A stretch of DNA of 64,000 nt from Parcubacteria group bacterium Greene0416_36 (GCA_007375725.1 VMEV01000002.1:45992-109991); one strand, 5' to 3'. Shown: positions 5,383-61,966, counted from the stretch's first letter. The notes: a model not told the origin generated them from the letters alone. Numbers and translations: made by a program.

Positions 5383-5469
5383 CAACAAATCCCCCTCAAT
5401 CCCCCTTTGACAAGGGGGAGGCTGCTACTCCCTCCCTTGTCAAAGGGAGGGCTGGGGAGGGATTTGTTG
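5383..5469. repeat. MITE-like palindromic element copy 2 (opposite orientation to copy 1)
   Basis: CAACAAATCCC...TTTGACAAGGGGG..CCCTTGTCAAAGGGAGGG...GGGATTTGTTG directly after pnp stop. Confidence 0.8.
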
Positions 5470-5504
5470 TTTGATCATTAAATATCACTTTTTAAAAGAT
5501 AGAT

Positions 5505-8426: not shown

Positions 8427-8533
8427 CTGAGTCACCTGCACTTTGCGGATGTCCTTTATTTGTAGAGACGCGCCATGGCGCGTCTCTACAAATAAAGGAC
8501 AAAATTCCGTAGCTTCCTAGGTGCAGGTGATTC
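8427..8533. mobile_element. 107 bp MITE-like element with 15 bp terminal inverted repeats and REP core GTAGAGACGCGCCATGGCGCGTCTCTAC, flanked by 11 bp direct repeat AGTTGTATTGG
   Basis: TIRs CTGAGTCACCTGCAC / GTGCAGGTGATTCAG; identical 11-mer at 8416-8426 and 8534-8544 (target-site-duplication-like). Confidence 0.6.
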
Positions 8534-9639: not shown

Positions 9640-9660
9640 TTTGATGAAAAAAACTATAAA

Positions 9661-9707
9661 AAAGTGTAAGGGGTCCGACGTTACGTCGGACCCCTTACAC
9701 TTTTTTT
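9661..9707. terminator. bidirectional intrinsic terminator hairpin (A-run / GTAAGGGGTCCGACG..CGTCGGACCCCTTAC / T-run)
   Basis: 20 bp stem, A-tract upstream and T-tract downstream, between convergent genes. Confidence 0.7.
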
Positions 9708-10195: not shown

Positions 10196-10278
10196 TAGGT
10201 GGCTCTTTTTTTATTTTGTCCGACATTGGAAAGGGTCGGTTTTATTTATTTTTTATAGGTTGAAAGGGGTGAAAAAAA

Positions 10279-10308
10279 GGTAGGGGCACAGCGCGCTGTG
10301 CTCCTACC
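10279..10308. repeat. REP-like hairpin GGTAGGGGCACAGCGCGCTGTGCTCCTACC (A-run upstream, T-run downstream)
   Basis: GTAG...CTAC palindrome; related copies inside glycosyltransferase gene at 56169-56226. Confidence 0.55.
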
Positions 10309-10580
10309 TTTTTTTGAGGTGGCGCTATAAAAGAATACCGACGGCTCTTTGGCTTGTTAATAAGTTCATTTACAAAGATAGAAAACTGGTTTAAATCTTC
10401 TTTCAGATCAAAAATTTTTGTTCTCTTTATCCGTAAGACTCTTGGGGTTCTGGGTATGATTAGCTTTCCCTTCTTAACCGGGGCACAAGTGTTTTATTTC
10501 TCCACTGTTAAGTTTGGACCCCCGAGTCTTACGGATTTTCTTTGTAATTATCAGATTTTTTATCATTTTTTTATAAATAT

Positions 10581-19230: not shown

Positions 19231-19296
19231 GTTGTATGGTTTTTATTGGAAAATGGCTAGAGGAAGCTGATTATTTTTTTTATATCCGTGGCATTT

Positions 19297-19325
19297 GTAG
19301 GGACGTTGCATTGCAACGTCCCTAC
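19297..19325. repeat. REP-like hairpin GTAGGGACGTTGCATTGCAACGTCCCTAC (extended stem 19290-19332)
   Basis: perfect palindrome after kinase gene; near-identical copy at 59959-59986. Confidence 0.55.
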
Positions 19326-19376
19326 AAATGCCACTAATTTGTGCTTATCTACACCTTATCCACATTGTGAATTACT

Positions 19377-27959: not shown

Positions 27960-28177
27960 AAGTACTATAAATAGATTGTCAAAATGAATTGATCAATTAA
28001 TTAAAAAATCATTCTTAAATCAAAAGAAAAAAATTGATTTCCCGCCAGAGGCGGACAATCGTCGTTTTTTTATAAAAAAATAATGGGCTAATATCAGCCG
28101 AAATAAGCTGATACAAGCTATTTTTTGAGAGTGAATGATTAAGAGAGTATATCACGTTCTATGGAAAAATCAATGGG

Positions 28178-28261
28178 TGCTGGCGGCCGGATTTGAACCG
28201 ACATGATCGAGCGATCGCTAGTCTCTGAAACTAGTGTGTCTACCAATTCCACCACGCCAGC
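28178..28261 (-). tRNA. tRNA-Leu (anticodon CAG), type II with long variable arm; CCA not encoded
   Basis: cloverleaf by hand: acceptor GCTGGCG/CGCCAGC, anticodon stem CTAGT/ACTAG loop TTCAGAG, T-loop TTCAAAT. Confidence 0.85.
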
Positions 28262-28272
28262 TTAATTTCTTG

Positions 28273-28300
28273 GTAAGGGCGTATTGCAATACGCCCTTAC
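28273..28300. repeat. REP hairpin GTAAGGGCGTATTGCAATACGCCCTTAC (family A), between SBP gene stop and tRNA-Leu
   Basis: identical 28-mer also inside and just after the RAYT gene (41268, 41569). Confidence 0.6.
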
Positions 28301-28307
28301 CAAGAAA

Positions 28308-30200
28308 TTATTTCCAAACTCGTTTTGTTTCAATATACCACTCACTGAGATTATTAAACCGGTCGCTGGGTTTGACGATATGATCGATATCGAAATTCTT
28401 GATGTCGTTCGACAAAATGTAGTTGTAGGTGGGGCTGTAAAGAAACAGCGCGGGAATTTCCCCCGATAGAATCTCTAGAAACTGTTTATATAATACTTCT
28501 CTCTGTGTCAAATCTTGATTTTGACGGGCATCGATGATAAGTTTATCGGCATTTTTGTCGGCAAAAGAGGTGAGGTTAAGTCCGGGGTCCTTGGCTTGAG
28601 AAGAATGCCAAAAAGCATAAGGATCGGGATCCAATCCGATATTTTGACCGTAGAGGAGGGCCTCATACTGCCGTTTTTTGATGATTTCTTTTTGTATTTT
28701 TGGGGCGTCAAATAATTTGAGCTCTACCTGCGCTCCAATTTTTTCCCAATAGTCTCGGATCAGTTCTGCTGCTTTTTTGTTTTCCGGATGATCTACCGTT
28801 GTAAGAGAGATGGAAAGAATATGGCCGTCTTTTTCACGGAAAAACTCTTGAGATATGGAGGGAGTTGCTGAATTTTCTAGAAAGGGTTCGAGTTCCTGAT
28901 CGGGTATGTTTTTGGGGTCTTTATCTGACAGTGCGGCGGGGAGGGTTTTATCTTTTTCCGAATCTTTTTTTGCGGCGAAGTTTTTTTCCATCCGGGTTCG
29001 GAGCTGTTTTATCGCTTGTTTTTTTTGCCTGTCTTTATACTCCTGCTGTGATATTTTCTGATATCCCGCCTCTTCGAGTAATTGATTGGCTTTTTGGGGA
29101 TCATAGGAGTCAGAGGGGGTTTGGGGGCCAAGAGATAAGAGGGGGTTATCAATCATTTTTCCTTGTTCTTCCAGCGCATAGTCAATGATTTTTTGTTTAG
29201 AAATCGCAAGTGACAGGGCCTGCCGGACGGTTTTGTTCTGGAGAATATTATTTTGATCTTGGTTGAAAAAAATGGCGGTATATTGAGGGAATGAGAGGGG
29301 GTGGGTAATCAAATGTTGGTTGCCCCTGATTGAGTCTTGTTCTTTTTGAGGCAAGAAATTGATGCCGTCGATTGTGCCATTTTGTATAGCGAGAGTGAGG
29401 TCGGTGGTATTTGCGAAAAAACGGAATTCAATTTTCTCTAGATAGGGTCTCTCTCCGTAAAAATTATCATTTCGGACTAGCGTATAAGATAAAATGGTTC
29501 CTTTCTTGTCTTTTTCTAGGGAATCAAACTTCCAAGGTCCGGAACCGATAGGTTTGCGATTATATTCCACGAGTTTCCAGTTTACAGCTGGGATTTCAGC
29601 CCAAATATGTTTGGGCAAAATCCCGAAAGTCAGGAGAGTGGGAAAAGGGGCGAAGGGCTTTTTGAGGGAAAATTTGAGCGTGTGGGGATCGATTTTTTGA
29701 TATTCTACTCCCCTGAGGCTTAGAAATAAAGGGCTTTGATAGGCCGGATCTAAAATGGCGTCAAGAGTAGCCACGACATCATCGGCATTAAATTTAGCCC
29801 CATCATGCCAATAGACATCTTGGCGCAGAGTGAGGGTGTAGATCAGGGAATCACTGGATATCTCGTAGTCGAGAGCCAGATCGGGTACGAGTTCTTGTTC
29901 TTTATTATATTTGAGCAATCCTGAATACACGAGGGAAGAGATATCATTGTCGATATCGCTGGTTTGAGAGAAGAGCGGATTCAAATAGAGCGGCGTGCCG
30001 ATGCTTCCTTCCGTATATTTGCCTCCCGATTGGGCGACTAGTTGTGTCCGGTTTAATATAAAAGAGGCTCCGATATAGGCGAAGCTCAACACAATAATAG
30101 AGAGCAGTATTTTTAACAGCAGATTTTCTCGGCGTGATAGAATTTTGGGCGTGCTGCGAATCTGTTTCCAAGTGGGAATTTTTTTTCTTTCCAAAAGCAT
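28308..30200 (-). CDS. extracellular solute-binding protein family 5 (OppA/DppA-like) with N-terminal membrane anchor
   Basis: SBP_bac_5-like core (YTLTLRQDVYWHDGAKFNADDVVATL); ORF-track N-terminus overlaps secG, true start likely Met ~30200. Confidence 0.6.
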   Translation of the reverse strand: MLLERKKIPTWKQIRSTPKILSRRENLLLKILLSIIVLSFAYIGASFILNRTQLVAQSGGKYTEGSIGTPLYLNPLFSQTSDIDNDISSLVYSGLLKYNKEQELVPDLALDYEISSDSLIYTLTLRQDVYWHDGAKFNADDVVATLDAILDPAYQSPLFLSLRGVEYQKIDPHTLKFSLKKPFAPFPTLLTFGILPKHIWAEIPAVNWKLVEYNRKPIGSGPWKFDSLEKDKKGTILSYTLVRNDNFYGERPYLEKIEFRFFANTTDLTLAIQNGTIDGINFLPQKEQDSIRGNQHLITHPLSFPQYTAIFFNQDQNNILQNKTVRQALSLAISKQKIIDYALEEQGKMIDNPLLSLGPQTPSDSYDPQKANQLLEEAGYQKISQQEYKDRQKKQAIKQLRTRMEKNFAAKKDSEKDKTLPAALSDKDPKNIPDQELEPFLENSATPSISQEFFREKDGHILSISLTTVDHPENKKAAELIRDYWEKIGAQVELKLFDAPKIQKEIIKKRQYEALLYGQNIGLDPDPYAFWHSSQAKDPGLNLTSFADKNADKLIIDARQNQDLTQREVLYKQFLEILSGEIPALFLYSPTYNYILSNDIKNFDIDHIVKPSDRFNNLSEWYIETKRVWK

Positions 30201-36843: not shown

Positions 36844-36871
36844 AATTTGAGAGATTTTTTATAAAAAAATA

Positions 36872-36899
36872 GTAGAGACGCGCCATGGCGCGTCTCTAC
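36872..36899. terminator. REP hairpin GTAGAGACGCGCCATGGCGCGTCTCTAC flanked by A-run/T-run (bidirectional terminator, family C)
   Basis: perfect 28 bp palindrome between convergent small ORF and glyA; same core as 8462-8489. Confidence 0.6.
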
Positions 36900-36917
36900 T
36901 ATTTTTTTATGATCTCT

Positions 36918-39579: not shown

Positions 39580-39658
39580 TTTTTTGACACGGTAAGTTTG
39601 GATCGGGGATCTCAGGTCCCTAAAATTTTTTTATCGGTATTCACACGACCGCAAAAAA

Positions 39659-39688
39659 GGTAAGGGCTCAAAATTTTGAGCCCTTACC
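39659..39688. repeat. hairpin GGTAAGGGCTCAAAATTTTGAGCCCTTACC + T-run; core of ~100 bp repeat unit E (copy 1, ~39632-39733)
   Basis: whole ~100 bp unit duplicated at ~40274-40378. Confidence 0.55.
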
Positions 39689-39776
39689 TTTTTTAGATGG
39701 GGGGAATAATTTGAGAATAAAAAAATCAGAACCTTGGATGGTCTGAAATTTTGTGAGGTGGAGTAGTCCTCTGGTT

Positions 39777-40190: not shown

Positions 40191-40303
40191 GGTAGAGATA
40201 AAATACGAATTAATGATTAGGTCTTTAGGCCCGCTTTAGGGCGAAGTGGGAGGATCTCATCTACTTGGGGTCTCTTATCGATACTCACTTGACGGCTAAA
40301 AAA

Positions 40304-40333
40304 GGTAAGGGCTCAAAATTTTGAGCCCTTACC
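40304..40333. repeat. repeat unit E copy 2 hairpin GGTAAGGGCTCAAAATTTTGAGCCCTTACC
   Basis: identical to 39659-39688 including flanks. Confidence 0.55.
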
Positions 40334-40433
40334 TTTTTTAGCGGGGGGGGGAATAATTTTGGAATAAAAAAATCAGAATTTTCATTCTGAGTTTTTTGCG
40401 CCTAGATTTGCGGACGCGATTTTTATATTGCGA

Positions 40434-40924: not shown

Positions 40925-41527
40925 ATGTCGGTCACATATGAATGGGAGCGGAAATCGATGAGACTTGTGGGCTATGATTATTCGAAGCCGGGGTTTTATT
41001 TTGTGACGGTTTTGACGAAGGATAGGGAATGTTTGTTTGGGGAGATTGAAGAGGGGGAGATGAGGTTGGGTGAGATGGGAAAGATTGCGGAGGGAGAGTG
41101 TTTGAAAACTTCGGAGATTCGAAAAAACATCAAGGTTGATTGTTTTGTGGTGATGCCAAATCATGTTCATGGGATTATTGAGATTATGGATGTTGACGGC
41201 GATCCGGGTAAGGACAATGTACTCGAGTCTCGACCTGGTAAGGGCACGGTGCTTGAGAGTCTACCCGGTAAGGGCGTATTGCAATACGCCCTTACCTCGA
41301 GTCGGGTGGGGTTTCGTTCTCCGTCCAATAATCTTGGTGCCGTGATCAGGGGATATAAATCATCAGTCACCAAACAAATCAATGACCTTCGTAATACCCC
41401 GTGCAATCCTGTCTGGCACCGCAACTACCACGATCACATCATCCGATCACTGGAGGAACTTGAAAATATCCGAGAGTATATAAAAAATAATCCACGAAGA
41501 TGGAAAGACGATCCGGAGAATGTTTAA
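40925..41527 (+). CDS. REP-associated tyrosine transposase (RAYT; IS200-like HuH transposase) carrying in-frame REP/tandem-repeat insert
   Basis: HuH motif MPNHVHGII, C-terminal WHRNYHDHIIRS...IREYIKNNPRRW; standalone, no IS ends recognised. Confidence 0.7.
   Translation: MSVTYEWERKSMRLVGYDYSKPGFYFVTVLTKDRECLFGEIEEGEMRLGEMGKIAEGECLKTSEIRKNIKVDCFVVMPNHVHGIIEIMDVDGDPGKDNVLESRPGKGTVLESLPGKGVLQYALTSSRVGFRSPSNNLGAVIRGYKSSVTKQINDLRNTPCNPVWHRNYHDHIIRSLEELENIREYIKNNPRRWKDDPENV
41204..41306 (+). repeat. three tandem ~30 bp repeats (CCnGGTAAGGnCAnnGTnCTnGAGnCTCnA), third containing REP GTAAGGGCGTATTGCAATACGCCCTTAC (41268-41295), in-frame inside RAYT
   Basis: encodes PGKDNVLESR / PGKGTVLESL / PGKGVLQYAL in the loop where RAYTs normally have a Gly-rich segment. 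Confidence 0.65.
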
Positions 41528-41568
41528 ATATATGAATTTTTTAAATCTGATTCATAGCAAGGACGCAA

Positions 41569-41596
41569 GTAAGGGCGTATTGCAATACGCCCTTAC
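41569..41596. repeat. REP GTAAGGGCGTATTGCAATACGCCCTTAC 42 nt downstream of RAYT stop
   Basis: third identical copy of family A. Confidence 0.6.
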
Positions 41597-41788
41597 GGGT
41601 TGGAGCAATGGCTCCGTGGCAAATATTATCCCCGCGGGGGATATACTTTTTGATTTATAAATTATTATCATAGCAATTTTTTGACAGATTAATTTTAAAA
41701 TTACACGAGATTGCCGCGCTCCCCTCGGAAATGAATCATGACTCTGTCATGATTCTAGGCTCGGGATCGCTCGCAATGACACTATCAT

Positions 41789-44773
41789 ATGCAAGAACAA
41801 AAAAAATCCTTCCTCTCTGAAATAGAGGAAAAAATACTCGAATTTTGGGACAAAGACAAAACATTTGAGAAGTCGGTAAACGAGCGGCCGGAATCAAAGC
41901 CTTATGTCTTTTATGACGGGCCTCCTTTTGCGACCGGTCTCCCTCATTATGGACATATCTTGGCGTCGACTTCCAAGGATATGGTTCCGCGATACTGGAC
42001 CATGAAAGGGTATCGGGTGGAGCGGCGGTGGGGATGGGATTGTCATGGCCTTCCGATCGAAAACATCGCTGAAAAGGAACTCAAAATCAGTGGCAAAAAA
42101 GCGATTGAGGAGATGGGCATTGATAAATTCAACGAGTTTTGCCGATCGAAAGTGCTCACTTATGCCAAGGATTGGGGGACAATAGTGCGTCGCATCGGCC
42201 GATGGGTGGATTTTGATAATGCCTACATGACCATGGATAATTCGTATATCGAGTCCGTGTGGTGGGCATTCAAGCAAATGCATGGAAAGGGCCTGATATA
42301 CGAAGGCAAAAAAGTGCTTCTCTACTGCTCCCGCTGTGAGACGCCGATTTCGAATTTCGAGATAGCGATGGATAATAGTTATAAGGATGTGGAGGAGGAA
42401 ACCGCTATCGCGAAATTAAAAATTAAAAATGAAAAATTAAAAATTGGAACAACAAATAATACTTACTTTTTGGCGTGGACGACGACACCGTGGACCCTAG
42501 TAGGGAATTTGGCATTGGCGATCAATAAAGATTTTGAATATGTGGTGGTGGCGAAAGATGGGATGAATGAGCAAATGATCTTGGCTAAGTCGGCATTTGA
42601 AAAACAGCAGGATTTGTATGCGGGATATTCGGTGGTGGAAACAGTTCGGGGGGAGAAACTATTAGATTTGGAATATGAACCGCTCTACGAGATGAATGCG
42701 GGCGGCAAGCGGGGATTTTATGCTTTGGATGGGGGAGCGGATGTGACTGCGGATGATGGAACGGGTATGGTCCATATGGCCATGTATGGTGAGTTCGACT
42801 ATGAAATGGCCAAGAAATATGATTTGCCTCAGATCATTCATTTGGATGAAATGGGAAAACTCAAAGAAGGGCCGGAAGCTTGGAAAGGCGTTTATTTCAA
42901 GAAATTGAATGGTTTGGTTTTGGAAGATCTCAAAAGTCGGGGACTTTTATTTGCTTCTCCGAAACATAGTCATTCGTATCCATTCTGTTATCGCTGTGCC
43001 ACGCCACTCTATTACGCGCCGATCCCGGCTTGGTTTATCGCCGTATCTAAAATCAAATCTCGTCTCCTCGAACTAAACGCGACGGGAAAAAATACCAATG
43101 GCAAAGATGTGGGCATCAATTGGGTACCGGATCATCTCAAGGAGGGCCGGTTCAAGAACAGTCTCGAAGGCGCGCCGGACTGGAATATTTCCAGAAACCG
43201 TTATTGGGCCTCTTCGATTCCCGTGTGGAAATGCGTGGATTGCGGAAAGCAGGAAGTTTTCGGATCCGTACAAGAATTGCGAGATAAGGCGACCAATCTC
43301 AAAGAATTAGGCTTGGAAAAAGCCGAGATCGATCTGCACAAACATGTTGTGGATAAAATATTGGTGGAGTGTGAGTGTGGTAAATCGATGCATCGTATTC
43401 CCGAAGTCATTGACTGCTGGGTGGAAAGCGCGTCCATGCCTTTCGCGGCGGAACATTACCCCTTCGAAAATGCTAAAAAATTCGAGCATTCATTTCCAGC
43501 TCAATTTGTCAGCGAATATATCGCTCAAACCCGGGCGTGGTTCTACGTTTGTCTTGTTCTCTCTGGAGCAGTATTCGACAAGATTCCTTTTGAAAATGTG
43601 GTGGTGACTGGTACGATCATGGCCGAGGATGGCACGAAAATGTCCAAATCTAAAGGGAATTATCCGGATCCCATGGGACTGATCAACCGTTTTGGTGTCG
43701 ATGCTCTGCGTCTCTATCTCATGTCTTCTCCTGTAATGAAAGGCGAATCCCTCAATTTTTCTGAGAAAGGCGTGGATGAAATGGCCAAGAAAGTCGTGAT
43801 GCTCTTGTATAATGTGGTGAATTTTTATGAGTTGTTTGTAACAAATCCCCCTCGGTCCCCCTTTGACAAGGGGGAAGAGGGTGTTGTTTCCCCCTCCCTT
43901 GTCAAAGGGAGGGTTGGGGTGGGATTTGTTGCCTCTACCCCATCGACAGGAAACATTCTCGACCGCTGGATCCTGTCCAAATTGAATACTCTGATTACTG
44001 AGATGACCGAAAAATATGATCGCTATGAACTAGTCGATGGCACGCGGCTGCTTCCTTCCTTCATCGATGAACTCTCCACCTGGTATGTCCGCCGTTCGCG
44101 GGACCGGTTTAAGGGGGAGGATGAGGCGGATCGACAAAGCGCTTTAGCGACTCTGGGTTTTGTTTTGTCGGAGCTTTCTAAACTGCTGGCTCCCGTTGCG
44201 CCCTTTACGGCTGAACAGGTTTGGATGCGGCTGGGTAATAAAACCTCGGTGCATTTGGAACCGTGGCCGGTCGCCAGTAAGGGCGTGGATGAAAAAGTGG
44301 TGGAAGAGATGGATTTTGTCCGAAAAATTGTCGAAGATGTTCATCGCCAGCGCGCAGAAGCGGGCGTGAAGGTGCGACAACCTCTTGGAAAAGTAGAATT
44401 AACTCTTCCTTTCGGACTTTCTCGAGATTTGGTTGATATTTTGAAAGATGAAGTGAATGTACTCGAAGTGATTCAGAAAAAAGGGGAGTGGAAAGTAGCG
44501 CTTGATACTCAACTTACTGAAGAACTTAAAAAAGCTGGAATGTTTCGAGAACTGGTCCGCCAGATCAACGGCATGCGAAAGGAATCAGGACTCTCGATCG
44601 GTGATTTTGTCACCATGGAATACCTCTCTGATCCTCAATTATCTGCTTGGATTGAATCTAATCGCGAGATATTAGCCAAACAGGTTTTGGCTTCGAAGAT
44701 TGTGGCGGGAGGGGATGGAGGGAAGGAACTGGATTTGGATGGGAAGAAGTTGGTGTGGAAAATTGTGAAATAA
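41789..44773 (+). CDS. ileS: isoleucyl-tRNA synthetase carrying in-frame MITE-derived 31-aa insert
   Basis: HIGH variant PHYGHIL, KMSKS, editing and anticodon-binding regions; insert at 43841-43932. Confidence 0.9.
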   Translation: MQEQKKSFLSEIEEKILEFWDKDKTFEKSVNERPESKPYVFYDGPPFATGLPHYGHILASTSKDMVPRYWTMKGYRVERRWGWDCHGLPIENIAEKELKISGKKAIEEMGIDKFNEFCRSKVLTYAKDWGTIVRRIGRWVDFDNAYMTMDNSYIESVWWAFKQMHGKGLIYEGKKVLLYCSRCETPISNFEIAMDNSYKDVEEETAIAKLKIKNEKLKIGTTNNTYFLAWTTTPWTLVGNLALAINKDFEYVVVAKDGMNEQMILAKSAFEKQQDLYAGYSVVETVRGEKLLDLEYEPLYEMNAGGKRGFYALDGGADVTADDGTGMVHMAMYGEFDYEMAKKYDLPQIIHLDEMGKLKEGPEAWKGVYFKKLNGLVLEDLKSRGLLFASPKHSHSYPFCYRCATPLYYAPIPAWFIAVSKIKSRLLELNATGKNTNGKDVGINWVPDHLKEGRFKNSLEGAPDWNISRNRYWASSIPVWKCVDCGKQEVFGSVQELRDKATNLKELGLEKAEIDLHKHVVDKILVECECGKSMHRIPEVIDCWVESASMPFAAEHYPFENAKKFEHSFPAQFVSEYIAQTRAWFYVCLVLSGAVFDKIPFENVVVTGTIMAEDGTKMSKSKGNYPDPMGLINRFGVDALRLYLMSSPVMKGESLNFSEKGVDEMAKKVVMLLYNVVNFYELFVTNPPRSPFDKGEEGVVSPSLVKGRVGVGFVASTPSTGNILDRWILSKLNTLITEMTEKYDRYELVDGTRLLPSFIDELSTWYVRRSRDRFKGEDEADRQSALATLGFVLSELSKLLAPVAPFTAEQVWMRLGNKTSVHLEPWPVASKGVDEKVVEEMDFVRKIVEDVHRQRAEAGVKVRQPLGKVELTLPFGLSRDLVDILKDEVNVLEVIQKKGEWKVALDTQLTEELKKAGMFRELVRQINGMRKESGLSIGDFVTMEYLSDPQLSAWIESNREILAKQVLASKIVAGGDGGKELDLDGKKLVWKIVK
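43841..43932. repeat. MITE-like element copy 4, inserted in-frame within ileS coding sequence
   Basis: ACAAATCCCC..CCCTTTGACAAGGGGG..CCCTCCCTTGTCAAAGGGAGGG..GGGATTTGTTGC; 93 bp = 31 codons, translated as ...PFDKGEEGVVSPSLVKGRVG... Confidence 0.75.
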
Positions 44774-50549: not shown

Positions 50550-51611
50550 ATGTCGCATCCACACAAAAATAAAAAACGTTTTTTTTTAATGGGATTGGGA
50601 GGGTGCTGCGGATTTGTAGCTCTTGGATTATTTTTATTCTCCGCGGCTTCTCCTTTTGGCGTATTTCAGTCTGCCATATCGAATCGAGATATCAAAAAGG
50701 ACAGCGAGCTTGTCGCCGCGGTCCCCCAGATATCTCGATTTTTAGATGGCGTGAAAGTGAACCAAGGGAAAGAAAATCACTTTCCCATCGCCGCCATGAT
50801 TGAGAATCATACCGAAGCCCGTCCCCAGTCCGGCCTTGCTAAGGCTCAGCTGGTTTTCGAGGCGCCTGTGGAAGGCGGCATCACCCGATTTTTAGCCGTG
50901 TTCACGGATTATTCGAGAGTGGAGAAAATGGGTCCGGTTCGTTCCGCGCGTCCCTACTATTTGGATTGGGCTATGGAATTTGACCCCCTGTATCTCCATG
51001 TCGGAGGAAGCGAGGATGCGCTTGATAAGTTGAAGCAAATCGGCATCCGCGATCTCGATCAGTATTTCGAGTACCAATATTATTGGCGTTCTCCGTCTCG
51101 AGCCGCGCCCCACAATGTCTACACTTCCGGCGAGCTTCTTGGCCGCGCTCTTCGAGACAAGGATCTCGAAGGCAAGACGGGTAATTTCACCCCGTGGAAA
51201 TTCGCGGACGCGGGCATGGACGGTGGGGTGGAAACTTCTTCCGTGAAAATTTCTTTTTCTTCTCCGGAATACGAAGTGAATTGGAAATATGACGCGGCGA
51301 AAAAGTCCTATGCCCGTTTTTACGGAACTGTCCTTCATACGGACGAAGACGGGACTGCGATCGAGGCGAAAAATATCGCACTTCTGTACACTCCGATTTT
51401 AATTATCGATGAAGTGGGCCGCCGCAGTGTCGAGACCTTGGGCACTGGCCGCGCCGTTATTTTTCAAAATGGAAAAGCCTTTGAAGGGACATGGGAGAAA
51501 CTGAACCGTAAATCGCGCCTCCGATTTTTTGTGAATGAAAAAGAGGTGGAATTCGTGCCCGGGGCGACTTGGGTGGAGGTGGTGTCGAAGACTTTTGATA
51601 TTGCGTGGTAA
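50550..51611 (+). CDS. secreted or lipoprotein, possibly DUF3048 (YerB-like) family
   Basis: signal peptide; EAPVEGGITRFLAVF-type motif; family call from memory. Confidence 0.4.
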   Translation: MSHPHKNKKRFFLMGLGGCCGFVALGLFLFSAASPFGVFQSAISNRDIKKDSELVAAVPQISRFLDGVKVNQGKENHFPIAAMIENHTEARPQSGLAKAQLVFEAPVEGGITRFLAVFTDYSRVEKMGPVRSARPYYLDWAMEFDPLYLHVGGSEDALDKLKQIGIRDLDQYFEYQYYWRSPSRAAPHNVYTSGELLGRALRDKDLEGKTGNFTPWKFADAGMDGGVETSSVKISFSSPEYEVNWKYDAAKKSYARFYGTVLHTDEDGTAIEAKNIALLYTPILIIDEVGRRSVETLGTGRAVIFQNGKAFEGTWEKLNRKSRLRFFVNEKEVEFVPGATWVEVVSKTFDIAW

Positions 51612-51613
51612 GA

Positions 51614-51699
51614 ACAACAAATCCCTCCCCAACCCTCCCTTTGACAAGGGAGGGGGTGGCCTCCCCCTTGTCAAAGGGGGATTGAGGGGGATTTGTTGC
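51614..51699. repeat. MITE-like element copy 6, between DUF3048-like gene and pilin gene
   Basis: CAACAAATCCCTCCCCAACCCTCCCTTTGACAAGGGAGGGGGTGGCCTCCCCCTTGTCAAAGGGGGATTGAGGGGGATTTGTTGC. Confidence 0.8.
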
Positions 51700-51708
51700 T
51701 TCAAATAT

Positions 51709-52125
51709 ATGAACAAAAAAGGTTTTACGTTAATCGAATTGCTGATTGTCGTGGTGATCGTGGGGCTTTTGTCCACGGCGGCGATCATGAGTTTTGGTTC
51801 GGCCAGAATCAAGGCGCGGGACGCAAAAAGGGTGGGGGATATCGCGGCTCTCACTAAGGCTCTGACTCTCTACATGAGCAGCAAAAATATCTATCCGGTG
51901 ACGGTTCCGGAGATCTGTCTGGACGGCACGGATTTGGTCAATGACGCGCTCATTGACGAAGGCGTGGTGGCGACTCCTATCCGAGACCCTCTCTACCCCG
52001 ATGACGTCGTCAAATGCTACCGCTACTCCTCCAATGCCGCCGGCACTCAGTACACTCTCAAATATTTTCTCGACACCACTAGTGACTCCGGCGAGGCGGG
52101 GGATCATAGTGTGTATAATGACTAG
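51709..52125 (+). CDS. type IV pilin-like protein (prepilin N-terminal cleavage/methylation domain)
   Basis: MNKKGFTLIELLIVVVIVGLLS class III signal; ORF-track N-terminal extension is MITE read-through. Confidence 0.7.
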   Translation: MNKKGFTLIELLIVVVIVGLLSTAAIMSFGSARIKARDAKRVGDIAALTKALTLYMSSKNIYPVTVPEICLDGTDLVNDALIDEGVVATPIRDPLYPDDVVKCYRYSSNAAGTQYTLKYFLDTTSDSGEAGDHSVYND

Positions 52126-55237: not shown

Positions 55238-57343
55238 ATGAATTTTCTCGGAAAAATTTCCGTCATCATCGCCTGCTTCAACTATGGCCGATTCATTGAA
55301 GAGGCCATTGAGAGTGTCCTGGAATCCACGTTTCAGGATTTTGAAATTGTGGTGGTGGATGACGGGTCTACAGATCCGGAGACGATTCGAGTGCTGGACG
55401 CGCTGGATCATCCAAGAATTCGATTGGTTCGACAGAAAAATCAGGGGCTCGCTATGGCTCGTAATAATGGCATAGAGGCGAGTTTCGGCGAGTATTTTTT
55501 GCCTCTGGACGCGGATGATAAAATTGCGCCGACGATGCTGGAAAAGTTTGTTGCCGTACTGGAAACTCGGCCTGATGTGGGGTTTGTTTATTCGTGGATT
55601 CAATTTTTTGGAGATGAAAATCGGGTTTTTAAAACTCAGGACGCGGATTTGAGCATTCTTCGCGAAGAAAATATCTGCTGTGGGTGTTCTTTGGTTCGAA
55701 AAGAGGCGTGGCGCGAGGTCGGGGGCTATGTTCCGGGTCTCTACGGGTACGAAGACTGGAATCTGTGGATTACTCTCGTTGAGAATGGCTGGCTGGGGGT
55801 TTCGATTCCCGAGATCCTTTTCTATTACCGTCGCCACGGCAAAACCATGCTCGCCGACGGCCAGAGCCGGCACTGGTATTTGATGGGGGAGATGGGGAAG
55901 TTGCATGCCCCCATGATCAGTGAGGGCGCACACATAGGTGCGCCCCTACGGGAGGGGGTTGCTTTGGTAAAAAAATTCCAAAATAAACTCACCTCCGAAG
56001 ACCTCCTCAATTGGCGCCTCTGGAAACAGTCTCCCTGGTACATGGCCAAGCGCACAATTCCCAATGGGATTAAATGGAAGGTCAAAGTCGTGTATTGGAA
56101 GATCAAGTCTTTATTTTTGAGGGGGAAAAAAGAGGCGGCGAGGCGCGAGATTTTGGCGGGGGTGGCGCGTAGGGGCACAGCGCGCTTGTCCGCCGTAGCT
56201 TTAGCGAAGGAGGGCTGTGCCCCTACGCGGGGTGAAGGGGTAACCAAAAAATCCATTCTCTATATCCTCCCCACCGTCTCGGTTGGCGGGGTTGAAAAGA
56301 CCGCGCTTGATACGATTCAGGCACTCCGAGGCGAGTTTGATTTCACGATTATTGTCAGTCAAAAAGGCGAGCACGCTTGGGCAGAGGCCTTCCGATCGGC
56401 AGGGGCACAGCTATTTTTTCTTGAAGACATTCGCGACCCATCACTGTGGGTCGAATTGCTACGGGGGGTGATTGCATTACGGAGAATCGAAGTGATTCAT
56501 ATCGCGAATTCGATTTGGGGCTATAGCCAAACCGCTTGGATTAAGGAGAAGTTCCCACATATCCGCATCATCGATATTTTTCAGGGTGGGGAAGTGGAAG
56601 GGGGCGTGATCGGCTGGAATCGGCAGTTCGAGGGGAATATCGACCAAACGATCGTCGTGAATTCCGGATTGTTCGAGAAATTGATCCATAAAGGCTCGCC
56701 GAGGGAGAAATTCATTTGTATTCCCAATGGCGTGTCGCTCTTGAAATTTTCTCGGGATAAAGTGGTTGTATCCGGAGAAGAGATTCGTTGGAAATGGGGA
56801 TTGCCTCTAGACCGTCCTATTATTTCTTTTGTCTCCCGTCTGTCTTCTGAAAAGAATCCTCTTTTTTTTCTTGAAGTCGCCAAAGCCATCCATGCCGCGC
56901 GTACGGGTGCCTTTTTTGTGGTTGCCGGATCGGGATATTTGCAGGATTTATTTTTAAATAAAAGAGCGGAGTTGAAACTGGAACATTCTCTCCGGTATTT
57001 TCCTCATCTACAGAATATTCCCGAACTGCTCAGCGTTTCATCGGTACTGGTCAATACGTCACTGACCGAAGGCTGGTCGGTGGCGATTCTGGAGGCTATG
57101 GCCATGGAAGTGCCGGTGGTGGCGTCTCGGATCTGGCAGAATGCGGCCTTGGTGGAAGAAGGGAAAACCGGACTCTTGGCTGATCTGGGCAATGTGAATG
57201 CTTATCGAGACTCGATTTTGCAGGTGCTGGATGATCCTTATTTATCCGGAGCGTTGGCTCTGAATGCGCGCAAAAAAGTGGTCGAGGAATATGGAATAGC
57301 AAAAATGGCGTCGAGGTATCGGGATTTGTATTTTTCCTATTAA
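55238..57343 (+). CDS. glycosyltransferase fusion: family 2 (N) + family 1/GT4 (C), linker containing REP-like sequences
   Basis: GT2 VVDDGS...DADD; GT4 C-term EGWSVAILEAMAMEVPVVAS; REP-like at 55924-55947 and 56169-56226. Confidence 0.65.
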   Translation: MNFLGKISVIIACFNYGRFIEEAIESVLESTFQDFEIVVVDDGSTDPETIRVLDALDHPRIRLVRQKNQGLAMARNNGIEASFGEYFLPLDADDKIAPTMLEKFVAVLETRPDVGFVYSWIQFFGDENRVFKTQDADLSILREENICCGCSLVRKEAWREVGGYVPGLYGYEDWNLWITLVENGWLGVSIPEILFYYRRHGKTMLADGQSRHWYLMGEMGKLHAPMISEGAHIGAPLREGVALVKKFQNKLTSEDLLNWRLWKQSPWYMAKRTIPNGIKWKVKVVYWKIKSLFLRGKKEAARREILAGVARRGTARLSAVALAKEGCAPTRGEGVTKKSILYILPTVSVGGVEKTALDTIQALRGEFDFTIIVSQKGEHAWAEAFRSAGAQLFFLEDIRDPSLWVELLRGVIALRRIEVIHIANSIWGYSQTAWIKEKFPHIRIIDIFQGGEVEGGVIGWNRQFEGNIDQTIVVNSGLFEKLIHKGSPREKFICIPNGVSLLKFSRDKVVVSGEEIRWKWGLPLDRPIISFVSRLSSEKNPLFFLEVAKAIHAARTGAFFVVAGSGYLQDLFLNKRAELKLEHSLRYFPHLQNIPELLSVSSVLVNTSLTEGWSVAILEAMAMEVPVVASRIWQNAALVEEGKTGLLADLGNVNAYRDSILQVLDDPYLSGALALNARKKVVEEYGIAKMASRYRDLYFSY
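56169..56226. repeat. interrupted REP-like palindrome GTAGGGGCACAGCGCGC...GCTGTGCCCCTAC inside glycosyltransferase ORF
   Basis: arms match 10280-10307 hairpin; read in-frame as ...RRGTARLSAVALAKEGCAPTRG... Confidence 0.55.
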
Positions 57344-59931: not shown

Positions 59932-59958
59932 TGATTTTGTTTTAAACGTCGACCATTG

Positions 59959-59986
59959 AGTAGGGACGTTGGATGCAACGTCCCTA
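59959..59986. repeat. REP-like hairpin GTAGGGACGTTGGATGCAACGTCCCTAC (family B copy 2)
   Basis: 28 nt after hydrolase stop; near-identical to 19297-19325. Confidence 0.55.
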
Positions 59987-60136
59987 CTCAATGGTCTGAC
60001 ATTGACTCATCACCCTTTCTTTTATAGACTAAAACAATTATTAAATTTGGATTTTTGAGATTCTGTTGTTTCTAGATCCTGAATCCTTCCGCCAAAGGCG
60101 GATCCGCCTTTGGCGGAAAATCCTGAATCCTAATCT

Positions 60137-61903: not shown

Positions 61904-61920
61904 GACATGTAAGGCAAAAA

Positions 61921-61966
61921 ACTGTAAGGGCTCCGATGTTACATCGGAGCCCTTACAGTTTTTTTA
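61921..61966 (+). terminator. intrinsic terminator ACTGTAAGGGCTCCGATGT-TA-ACATCGGAGCCCTTACAGT + T7
   Basis: 19 bp stem right after aspS; GTAAGGG..CCCTTAC ends like the REP family. Confidence 0.7.

Follow-up and report, generated by a model that had tools for sequence, protein, structure and literature searches.

The stretch of DNA analysed here, 64,000 nucleotides (nt) from Parcubacteria group bacterium Greene0416_36 (GCA_007375725.1, VMEV01000002.1:45992-109991; hereafter the window), contains a gene for a REP-associated tyrosine transposase (RAYT, also called TnpAREP) with a repetitive extragenic palindrome (REP) inside its own coding sequence. With a probability of about 85%, we assign this gene to subclass 2.4 of the TnpA_Y1 proteins and its surroundings to a REPtron-like locus with cognate double-foot REPs. 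Quentin, Siguier, Chandler and Fichant (2018, BMC Genomics 19:475; PMC6006769) sorted TnpA_Y1 proteins into subclasses, in which subclass 2.4 is equivalent to what Bertels et al. (2017) called RAYT group 4. The first-pass annotation of the window regarded a RAYT carrying its cognate REP in frame as unusual. The in-frame palindrome is indeed the same element as the copy flanking the gene, and the arrangement is uncommon for RAYTs in general; within subclass 2.4, however, it was already published in 2018 as a hallmark (PMC6006769). What the window adds is a further member, in a host of the Candidate Phyla Radiation (CPR) and with a GTAA/TTAC variant of the REP.

Subclass 2.4 proteins have a median length of 194 amino acids (aa), the motifs NH[IFV]H, WQ and YIxNNP, an 8-aa insertion ending helix alphaB and short repeats in a variable beta3-alphaC insertion (PMC6006769). 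Their REPs are long 'double-foot' palindromes with 5' GT[AG]G and 3' C[TC]AC that lie within about 1 kb of the gene, and are also inserted into the gene itself without breaking its frame, in the stretch from the HuH to the Tyr motif; GTAA-headed REPs are present among the subclass 2.4 entries of Table S1 (PMC6006769). The window resembles this description, as exemplified by Calothrix sp. PCC 7507 (AFY32102), in its HuH and Tyr motifs, a length near the ~194 aa of the subclass, a repeat-bearing loop, and double-foot REPs both flanking and in frame. The subclass has a mean of 1.5 genes per genome (PMC6006769), and an hmmsearch against all six translated frames of the 64 kb detected a single RAYT homologue. 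The hosts reported by Quentin et al. were Cyanobacteria, Bacteroidetes and 'various phyla', whereas ours belongs to Parcubacteria.

The open reading frame (ORF) is uninterrupted from the ATG at 40925 to the stop codon at 41525-41527, as first noted, but it encodes 200 aa, the 201 of the first-pass annotation having counted the stop codon. We preferred this ATG over the one at 40958, since the latter drops conserved N-terminal residues: starting at 40925 keeps R9, S11, R13 and L14, conserved in the family, while the public annotation of the protein (P0001), 189 aa from ATG 40958, loses R9 and S11 of the family alignment. The HuH and C-terminal RAYT motifs named in the first-pass annotation (PNHVH, WHRNYHDHIIR and YIKNNP) are confirmed (Table 1), the first matching the subclass 2.4 consensus NH[IFV]H and the last YIxNNP. 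In an alignment of 23 homologues (alignment A1), H80, H82, Y185 and N189 are invariant columns. The counterpart of the GTAG-binding surface of Escherichia coli TnpAREP keeps W164, H171 and R174, with H165 at the position of Q95 and D170 at that of E100. The WH pair is also seen in the close homologues P0004, P0008, P0025, P0027 and L038, which makes it a variant within the subclass.

Several comparisons support an IS200/RAYT fold, the lack of which in a profile search would, according to the first-pass annotation, have refuted its reading. The NCBIfam model REP_Tyr_transpos (NF047646) matches with an E-value of 4.6e-18, split over two stretches, and a profile built on A1 has a sole match in the PDB, the E. 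coli TnpAREP structure 4ER8 (E 1.2e-5), covering the HuH strand and the WQ..EH..R..YI.NP helix. This profile search replaced a single-sequence phmmer search against the PDB, the only match of which was spurious and went through the loop peptide. An AlphaFold model, also based on A1, has a mean predicted local distance difference test (pLDDT) score of 79.5, above 90 in the core and below 50 at residues 94-127, a loop located between strand 80-87 and helix 137-156. Foldseek compared this model with the PDB and returned 30 matches at E <= 1e-3, every one a TnpAREP or an IS200/IS605 TnpA: 4er8_A at the top (E 2.8e-6), then 29 IS200/IS605 TnpA chains, up to E 5e-4. A large-database search retrieved 6377 homologues, many of them titled 'REP element-mobilizing transposase RayT'. 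The identical protein is recorded on four contigs (NCBI, ENA), where it is annotated as hypothetical and attributed to 'Parcubacteria group bacterium Gr01-1014_18', and the next-best homologues, ~54% identical, are drawn from many phyla. Sequence and model together thus support a RAYT/TnpAREP with an intact HUH/Y1 nuclease core (H80, H82 and the conserved, presumably catalytic Y185), whose activity is predicted.

Table 1. Features of the window (positions counted from its first nucleotide)
Feature	Position	Strand	Remarks
RAYT/TnpAREP gene, subclass 2.4 (probable)	40925..41527	+	Open frame, 200 aa plus stop; homology and fold
HuH motif P78-N-H80-V-H82 (PNHVH)	41156..41170	+	Start of strand beta3; aligned to PEHMH of 4ER8
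Variable beta3-alphaC loop, residues 94-127	41204..41305	+	pLDDT below 50, predicted disordered; houses repeat units and REP
Two degenerate 30-bp units	41205..41264	+	41205-41234 (PGKDNVLESR) and 41235-41264 (PGKGTVLESL); REP head GGTAAGGAC in unit 1, GGTAAGGGC in unit 2
REP-A in gene	41267..41296	+	30-nt perfect palindrome; 28-mer core 41268-41295 = GTAAGGGCGTATTGCAATACGCCCTTAC; in frame, encodes GKGVLQYALT
W164-H-R-N-Y-H-D-H-I-I-R174	41414..41446	+	Counterpart of E. coli TnpAREP GTAG-binding W94 Q95...E100 H101...R104
Tyr motif Y185-I-K-N-N-P	41477..41494	+	Presumed catalytic tyrosine; alignment A1, 4ER8 profile match
REP-A flanking copy	41569..41596	.	Begins 42 nt after last stop-codon base; no T-run behind
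REP-A distal copy (28273-28300)	28263..28310	.	Within 48-nt perfect palindrome; between tRNA-Leu and the stop codon of a solute-binding-protein gene
REP-A, 3 copies	28273-28300, 41268-41295, 41569-41596
REP-B	39653..39694	.	GGTAAGGGCTCAAAATTTTGAGCCCTTACC flanked by A6 and T6; feet as REP-A; between convergent genes upstream of RAYT (~1.2 kb)
REP-B second copy	40295..40342	.	583 nt upstream of RAYT start; RNA hairpin -38.6 kcal/mol
REP-C	8450..8501, 36861-36910	.	GTAGAGACGCGCCATGGCGCGTCTCTAC; first copy in 52-nt perfect palindrome
REP-D	19288..19334, 59951-59996	.	GTAGGGACGTTGCA.TGCAACGTCCCTAC; second copy slightly different
Singleton double-foot palindromes	9658-9706, 10272-10315, 61916-61964
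Flank-extended palindromes	8450-8501, 9658-9706, 10272-10315, 19288-19334, 28263-28310, 36861-36910, 39653-39694, 40295-40342, 59951-59996, 61916-61964
Second repeat family, copies	1946-2047, 5390-5491, 43852-43953, 51593-51694		Third copy in IleS ORF 41789-44773, fourth in ORF 51535-52125

Within the beta3-alphaC loop, one intact REP comes after two degenerate REP-head units. This REP, a perfect palindrome, combines a GTAA head with the complementary foot TTAC, and its 28-nt core GTAAGGGCGTATTGCAATACGCCCTTAC is identical at 28 of 28 positions to two other copies in the window, one downstream of the gene (301 nt from the in-gene copy) and one at a distance of 13 kb, 12 nt from tRNA-Leu(CAG) (28176-28261, minus strand), both exactly where the first-pass annotation had listed them. 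With up to three mismatches allowed, the core has exactly three matches in 64 kb, and zero in 100 dinucleotide-preserving shuffles. The loop had been described as three tandem units of ~30 bp: two degenerate units are indeed present, while the third is the intact REP, which resembles the others over its first ~12 nt only. Units 1 and 2 are identical at 21 of 30 positions, and adjacent 30-mers reach at least 20 of 30 at just one further site in the window. This was established by comparing all adjacent 30-mers; with its minimum score set to 30, Tandem Repeats Finder missed both units. The 9-nt head word GGTAAGGGC has nine matches in the window against 0.3 expected, all of them within REP feet, and unit 2 has an exact copy.

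How common is this architecture among related genes? We fetched 80 homologous loci from named genomes and analysed 71 genes from many phyla, that of the window included, scoring as an intact in-gene REP a double-foot palindrome of 27-29 nt in the beta3-alphaC loop with at most two mismatches. Such a REP is present in 33 of the 71, and many other genes have a single-foot or decayed version; among the 38 without an intact double-foot copy, several contain decayed remnants only, or none. The GTAG head falls in frame 0 in 23 genes (V-G-A...P-L), in frame 1 in ten (R-G...A-P-T) and in frame 2 in none of the 33; frame 2 would read TAG, and its absence argues for selection for an intact protein. One and the same hairpin, GGGCGTATTGCAATACGCCC, reads GVLQYAPT in part of the homologues but GAYCNTPL in another part. 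The use of one hairpin in two frames suggests that the DNA is what is conserved, with selection keeping the ORF open.

The core recurs within 1.2 kb, with at most two mismatches, in 19 of the 33 genes, typically 280-500 nt from the in-gene copy, at the gene ends. A limited set of cores recurs across phyla, and protein pairs sharing a core are on average 58% identical against 51% for pairs with different cores (Mann-Whitney p = 4e-5). This coupling between core and clade is modest, some same-core pairs being merely 44% identical. Loop length varies widely among the homologues. The first-pass annotation held the loop to be normally glycine-rich, a description that does not apply, as the loop is variable and its glycines derive from the GGG of REP heads. 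In two pairs of homologues (P0010 and P0015, P0055 and P0059), the members differ solely in the number of loop units, which shows that units are gained and lost quickly and would fit slippage at the hairpin. An Anaerolineaceae contig (L037, at about 10.2-11.0 kb) bears two subclass-2.4 RAYT genes ~740 nt apart, each with a different in-gene double-foot REP (cores GCGCACGGCCGTGCGC and GCGGTTCGCGAACCGC).

We also considered whether the replacement of Q95 by histidine tracks a non-canonical REP head, and rejected this as a rule, there being no clean covariation. The window gene (WH, GTAA), L038 (WH, GTAC) and L030 (WL, GTAC) support such a link; counterexamples are P0008, which has WH with a V-G peptide, that is, a GTxG head, and P0006, where WQ goes together with what looks like a GTAA head (SKGVLQYAL).

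The 28-mer is shared well beyond this organism. At least 120 metagenome contigs (L081-L200), ranging in GC content from 31 to 69%, contain the pattern GTA[AG]GGGCGTATTGCAATACGCCC[CT]TAC. Among the matches listed, eight of 124 copies of the 28-mer lie inside a RAYT gene, and the GTAA/TTAC form is found on one contig only (L112), otherwise unrelated to the window. The 122 listed metagenomic copies show neither conservation nor complementarity outside the feet, which is consistent with the 28-mer being the mobile unit. The presence of an identical REP in such different organisms is contrary to what species-specific REP families would predict.

In all, the 64 kb contain about 12 perfect palindromes, each with a GTA[AG] head and the foot complementary to it; those other than REP-A share the feet and differ in the upper stem. 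The REP-B copy at 40295-40342 provides the upstream side of the REPtron-like arrangement. Of the 11 intergenic REPs, ten are located 4-300 nt after a stop codon, and six are flanked by an A-run and a T-run, so that intergenic REPs probably double as transcript-end hairpins, in agreement with the findings of Di Nocera, De Gregorio and Rocco (2013, BMC Genomics 14:522) on GTAG REPs in general. No T-run accompanies the REP-A copies inside and beside the RAYT gene. Rfam, run on the whole window at gathering thresholds, detected tRNA alone: no RNA family on the REPs or the ileS leader, and no T-box.

In ten of the 12 window REPs the perfect palindrome reaches 7-12 nt past the feet, into flanks that are specific to each copy, as in TGTCCTTTATTT|REP-C|AAATAAAGGACA and ATAAAAAAATA|REP-C|TATTTTTTTAT. 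Most REPs of this genome are thus embedded in longer, copy-specific perfect palindromes, unlike those in the description of subclass 2.4. We rejected such extension as a general property of this REP: of the 122 metagenomic copies among the matches listed, 80 are not extended at all and two are extended by at least 14 nt. Since only these two show it, flank extension is a trait of this genome. It is possible that it arose by insertion into the apex of older hairpins, or by symmetrisation through fold-back or template switching.

Two better-known systems help to situate the enzyme. E. coli TnpAREP (subclass 2.2; 4ER8; Ton-Hoang 2012, Messing 2012) has the same HUH/Y1 fold, hairpin REPs with a 5' tetranucleotide, the W..[ED]H..R and Y..NP signatures and a REPtron organization, with a sequence identity of 16% to the window protein. 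Its REPs, however, are imperfect, bulged and single-foot, its gene has no internal REP or long beta3-alphaC loop, and it possesses a C-terminal inhibitory tail that the window protein lacks. The TnpA proteins of IS200/IS605 elements (IS608, ISDra2; subclass 1.1) have in common with the window protein the fold and, as predicted for the latter, the catalytic chemistry, the use of single-stranded DNA hairpins and a guide tetranucleotide that pairs with the site to be cut; IS608 cleaves after TTAC, by chance the sequence of the REP-A 3' foot. These elements have a Y...Q motif, are multicopy, with distinct left and right ends and often a tnpB, whereas the window presents Y..NP, one gene and many free-standing REPs. 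We therefore rejected an IS200/IS605 insertion sequence as an identity for the locus, in view of YIKNNP in place of Y...Q, a single copy in the window and no tnpB-like neighbour, the adjoining ORFs having no Pfam match.

In-frame palindromes have a precedent outside RAYT genes. Di Nocera et al. (2013) described GTAG-tagged palindromes in frame in tolerant protein regions, as is the case here; their insertions mainly concerned genes for replication and repair, and their paper describes no REP within a RAYT gene. Our literature search returned no later paper on the in-gene REP feature, none linking REPs with Parcubacteria, and nothing on this REP sequence or its peptides.

By analogy with the enzymes of E. 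coli, S. maltophilia and Marinomonas, the RAYT would bind a folded REP on single-stranded DNA and grip its 5' tetranucleotide through the W-x...[ED]-H..R surface. In GTAG, A3 and G4 are free for pairing with a CT cleavage site (Messing 2012; Corneloup 2021). By the same scheme, cleavage should take place at a dinucleotide complementary to head positions 3-4, hence at CT for GTAG and, as a prediction, at TT for GTAA. Each REP could supply this TT from its own TTAC foot (CTAC elsewhere), in which case the 28-mer would hold both guide and target. Cleavage would proceed via a 5'-phosphotyrosine on Y185, and rejoining would disperse the REPs. The homologue census suggests that an in-gene REP may come from local insertion of, or conversion by, flanking REPs. 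With the transposase presumably under purifying selection and the loop tolerating any peptide, only in-frame, stop-free events would survive, and hairpin-promoted slippage would then yield degenerate 30-bp units. A tolerated in-frame event is also the explanation favoured by Quentin et al. (PMC6006769).

Some observations weigh against this interpretation and against the subclass assignment on which it is built. The feet are GTAA/TTAC where subclass 2.4 has GT[AG]G/C[TC]AC, and WH replaces WQ in the W motif. The protein scores below the cut-offs of family models, with 20.7 bits for Pfam Y1_Tnp (gathering score 23) and 65.5 bits for NCBIfam NF047646 (curated cut-off 80), because the loop probably splits the match. 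Our REP census covers 64 kb of the genome. We found no biochemistry of any subclass 2.4 enzyme in the literature searched; the mechanism is borrowed from subclasses 2.2 and 2.5, and the TT site is a prediction only. Finally, selection for the REP, and not mere tolerance, might account for the very high incidence of in-gene REPs in a single gene family.

Is the in-gene REP then kept for a function? It might act as a cis-regulatory hairpin, through attenuation, RNase targeting or autoregulation by RAYT binding, or as a 'seed' copy that ensures joint inheritance and transfer of the gene and its cognate REP. Its position is conserved across phyla while its peptide is not, and the palindrome is held in two frames; in the window it retains full 28/28 identity to the genomic copies, would form a strong hairpin as RNA (-22.8 kcal/mol) and is followed by a weak terminator-like site (41290-41311). 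The identical 28-mers in metagenome contigs of widely different GC content (at least 120, 31 to 69%) would also fit co-transfer of gene and REP. However, 38 of the 71 homologues do without an intact copy, several having a decayed one or none, the T-tract behind the hairpin is poor, and in-frame REP-like inserts are found in two unrelated genes of the window, encoding an isoleucyl-tRNA synthetase (IleS) and a glycosyltransferase. We consequently consider a retained function rather unlikely. A bolder version, in which the in-gene REP is the element's own cis-site, a nucleotide-level 'seed' or autoregulatory hairpin uniting enzyme and substrate in vertical or horizontal inheritance, would explain the two-frame palindrome across phyla, its identity to genomic REPs and the recurrence of the same 28-mer at 31-69% GC, but we hold it to be improbable.

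The gene could alternatively be a decaying relic, inactivated by REP insertion and slippage, with an open frame by coincidence. The insertion and repeats add ~30 disordered residues, the W motif is non-consensus (WH and HD) and the family-model scores stay under curated cut-offs. This is nonetheless very unlikely given 200 codons free of stops and frameshifts, a model core with pLDDT above 90 and the 27 invariant columns of A1 (H80, H82, Y185 and N189 included), which the protein shares by definition; the stop-creating frame of the REP head, seen in 0 of 33 homologues, again points to selection for an intact protein. That the palindromes are plain intrinsic terminators unrelated to the enzyme, the in-gene copy having matched by chance or convergence or through misassembly, is hardly credible. 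Many of them do lie right behind stop codons, six with A-run/T-run flanks, but the in-gene and gene-flanking REP-A copies have no T-runs, and a 28/28 match, with 0 expected, cannot be chance in the one gene whose family is defined by an in-gene REP. An assembly artefact in the repeat region, which the first-pass annotation had raised as a possible objection, is unlikely because the identical protein is recorded on four contigs and because dozens of unrelated genomes, 33 independent ones by our count, have this architecture as well. A subclass 2.4 RAYT that tolerates an in-frame REP remains our preferred explanation.

Other genes of the window also contain repeats in frame. A second repeat family of ~80 nt, with the two hairpins CCCTCCCTTTGACAAGGGAGGG and CCTCCCCCTTGTCAAAGGGGGA, is present in four copies that are ~80-95% alike (alignment A2). 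One of these is in frame in the IleS-like gene (peptide ...PPRSPFDKGEEGVVSPSLVKGRVGVGF...) and another in a 196-aa ORF. In addition, REP-like palindromes at 55922-55949 and 56169-56226 lie in frame in the linker region of a glycosyltransferase-like ORF of 701 aa and two domains (55238-57343), giving the peptides SEGAHIGAPLREG and VARRGTARLSAVALAKEGCAPTRG. The palindrome at 56169-56226 has the arms of the 10272-10315 REP (GTAGGGGCACAGC...GCTGTGCCCCTAC) with ~30 nt inserted at the apex, and looks like a nested insertion. The in-frame REP-like inserts in IleS and the glycosyltransferase suggest that linker tolerance is common in this window. Directly upstream of the IleS start, an imperfect inverted repeat (41700-41788) surrounds the hairpin GAATCATGACTCTGTCATGATTC.

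Three aspects of this work are modestly new: the explicit use of an in-gene REP in two frames, the distribution of the 28-mer across metagenomes, and the embedding of REPs in longer, copy-specific palindromes. For annotation, a large group of odd low-complexity peptides such as GVLQYAPT, VGAYCNTPL and VGAxxxxPL is explained as translated REPs. The locus adds a Parcubacteria (CPR) example to a RAYT subclass with no biochemical study in the literature searched, and offers a clean system, with a small genome, one gene in the window, a perfect 28-nt putative substrate and a GTAA/TTAC variant that predicts a retargeted TT site. More generally, a palindrome that is independent of reading frame and a 28-mer shared across metagenomes sharpen the question of whether in-gene REPs are tolerated, or are part of the way in which REP-RAYT systems persist and move.

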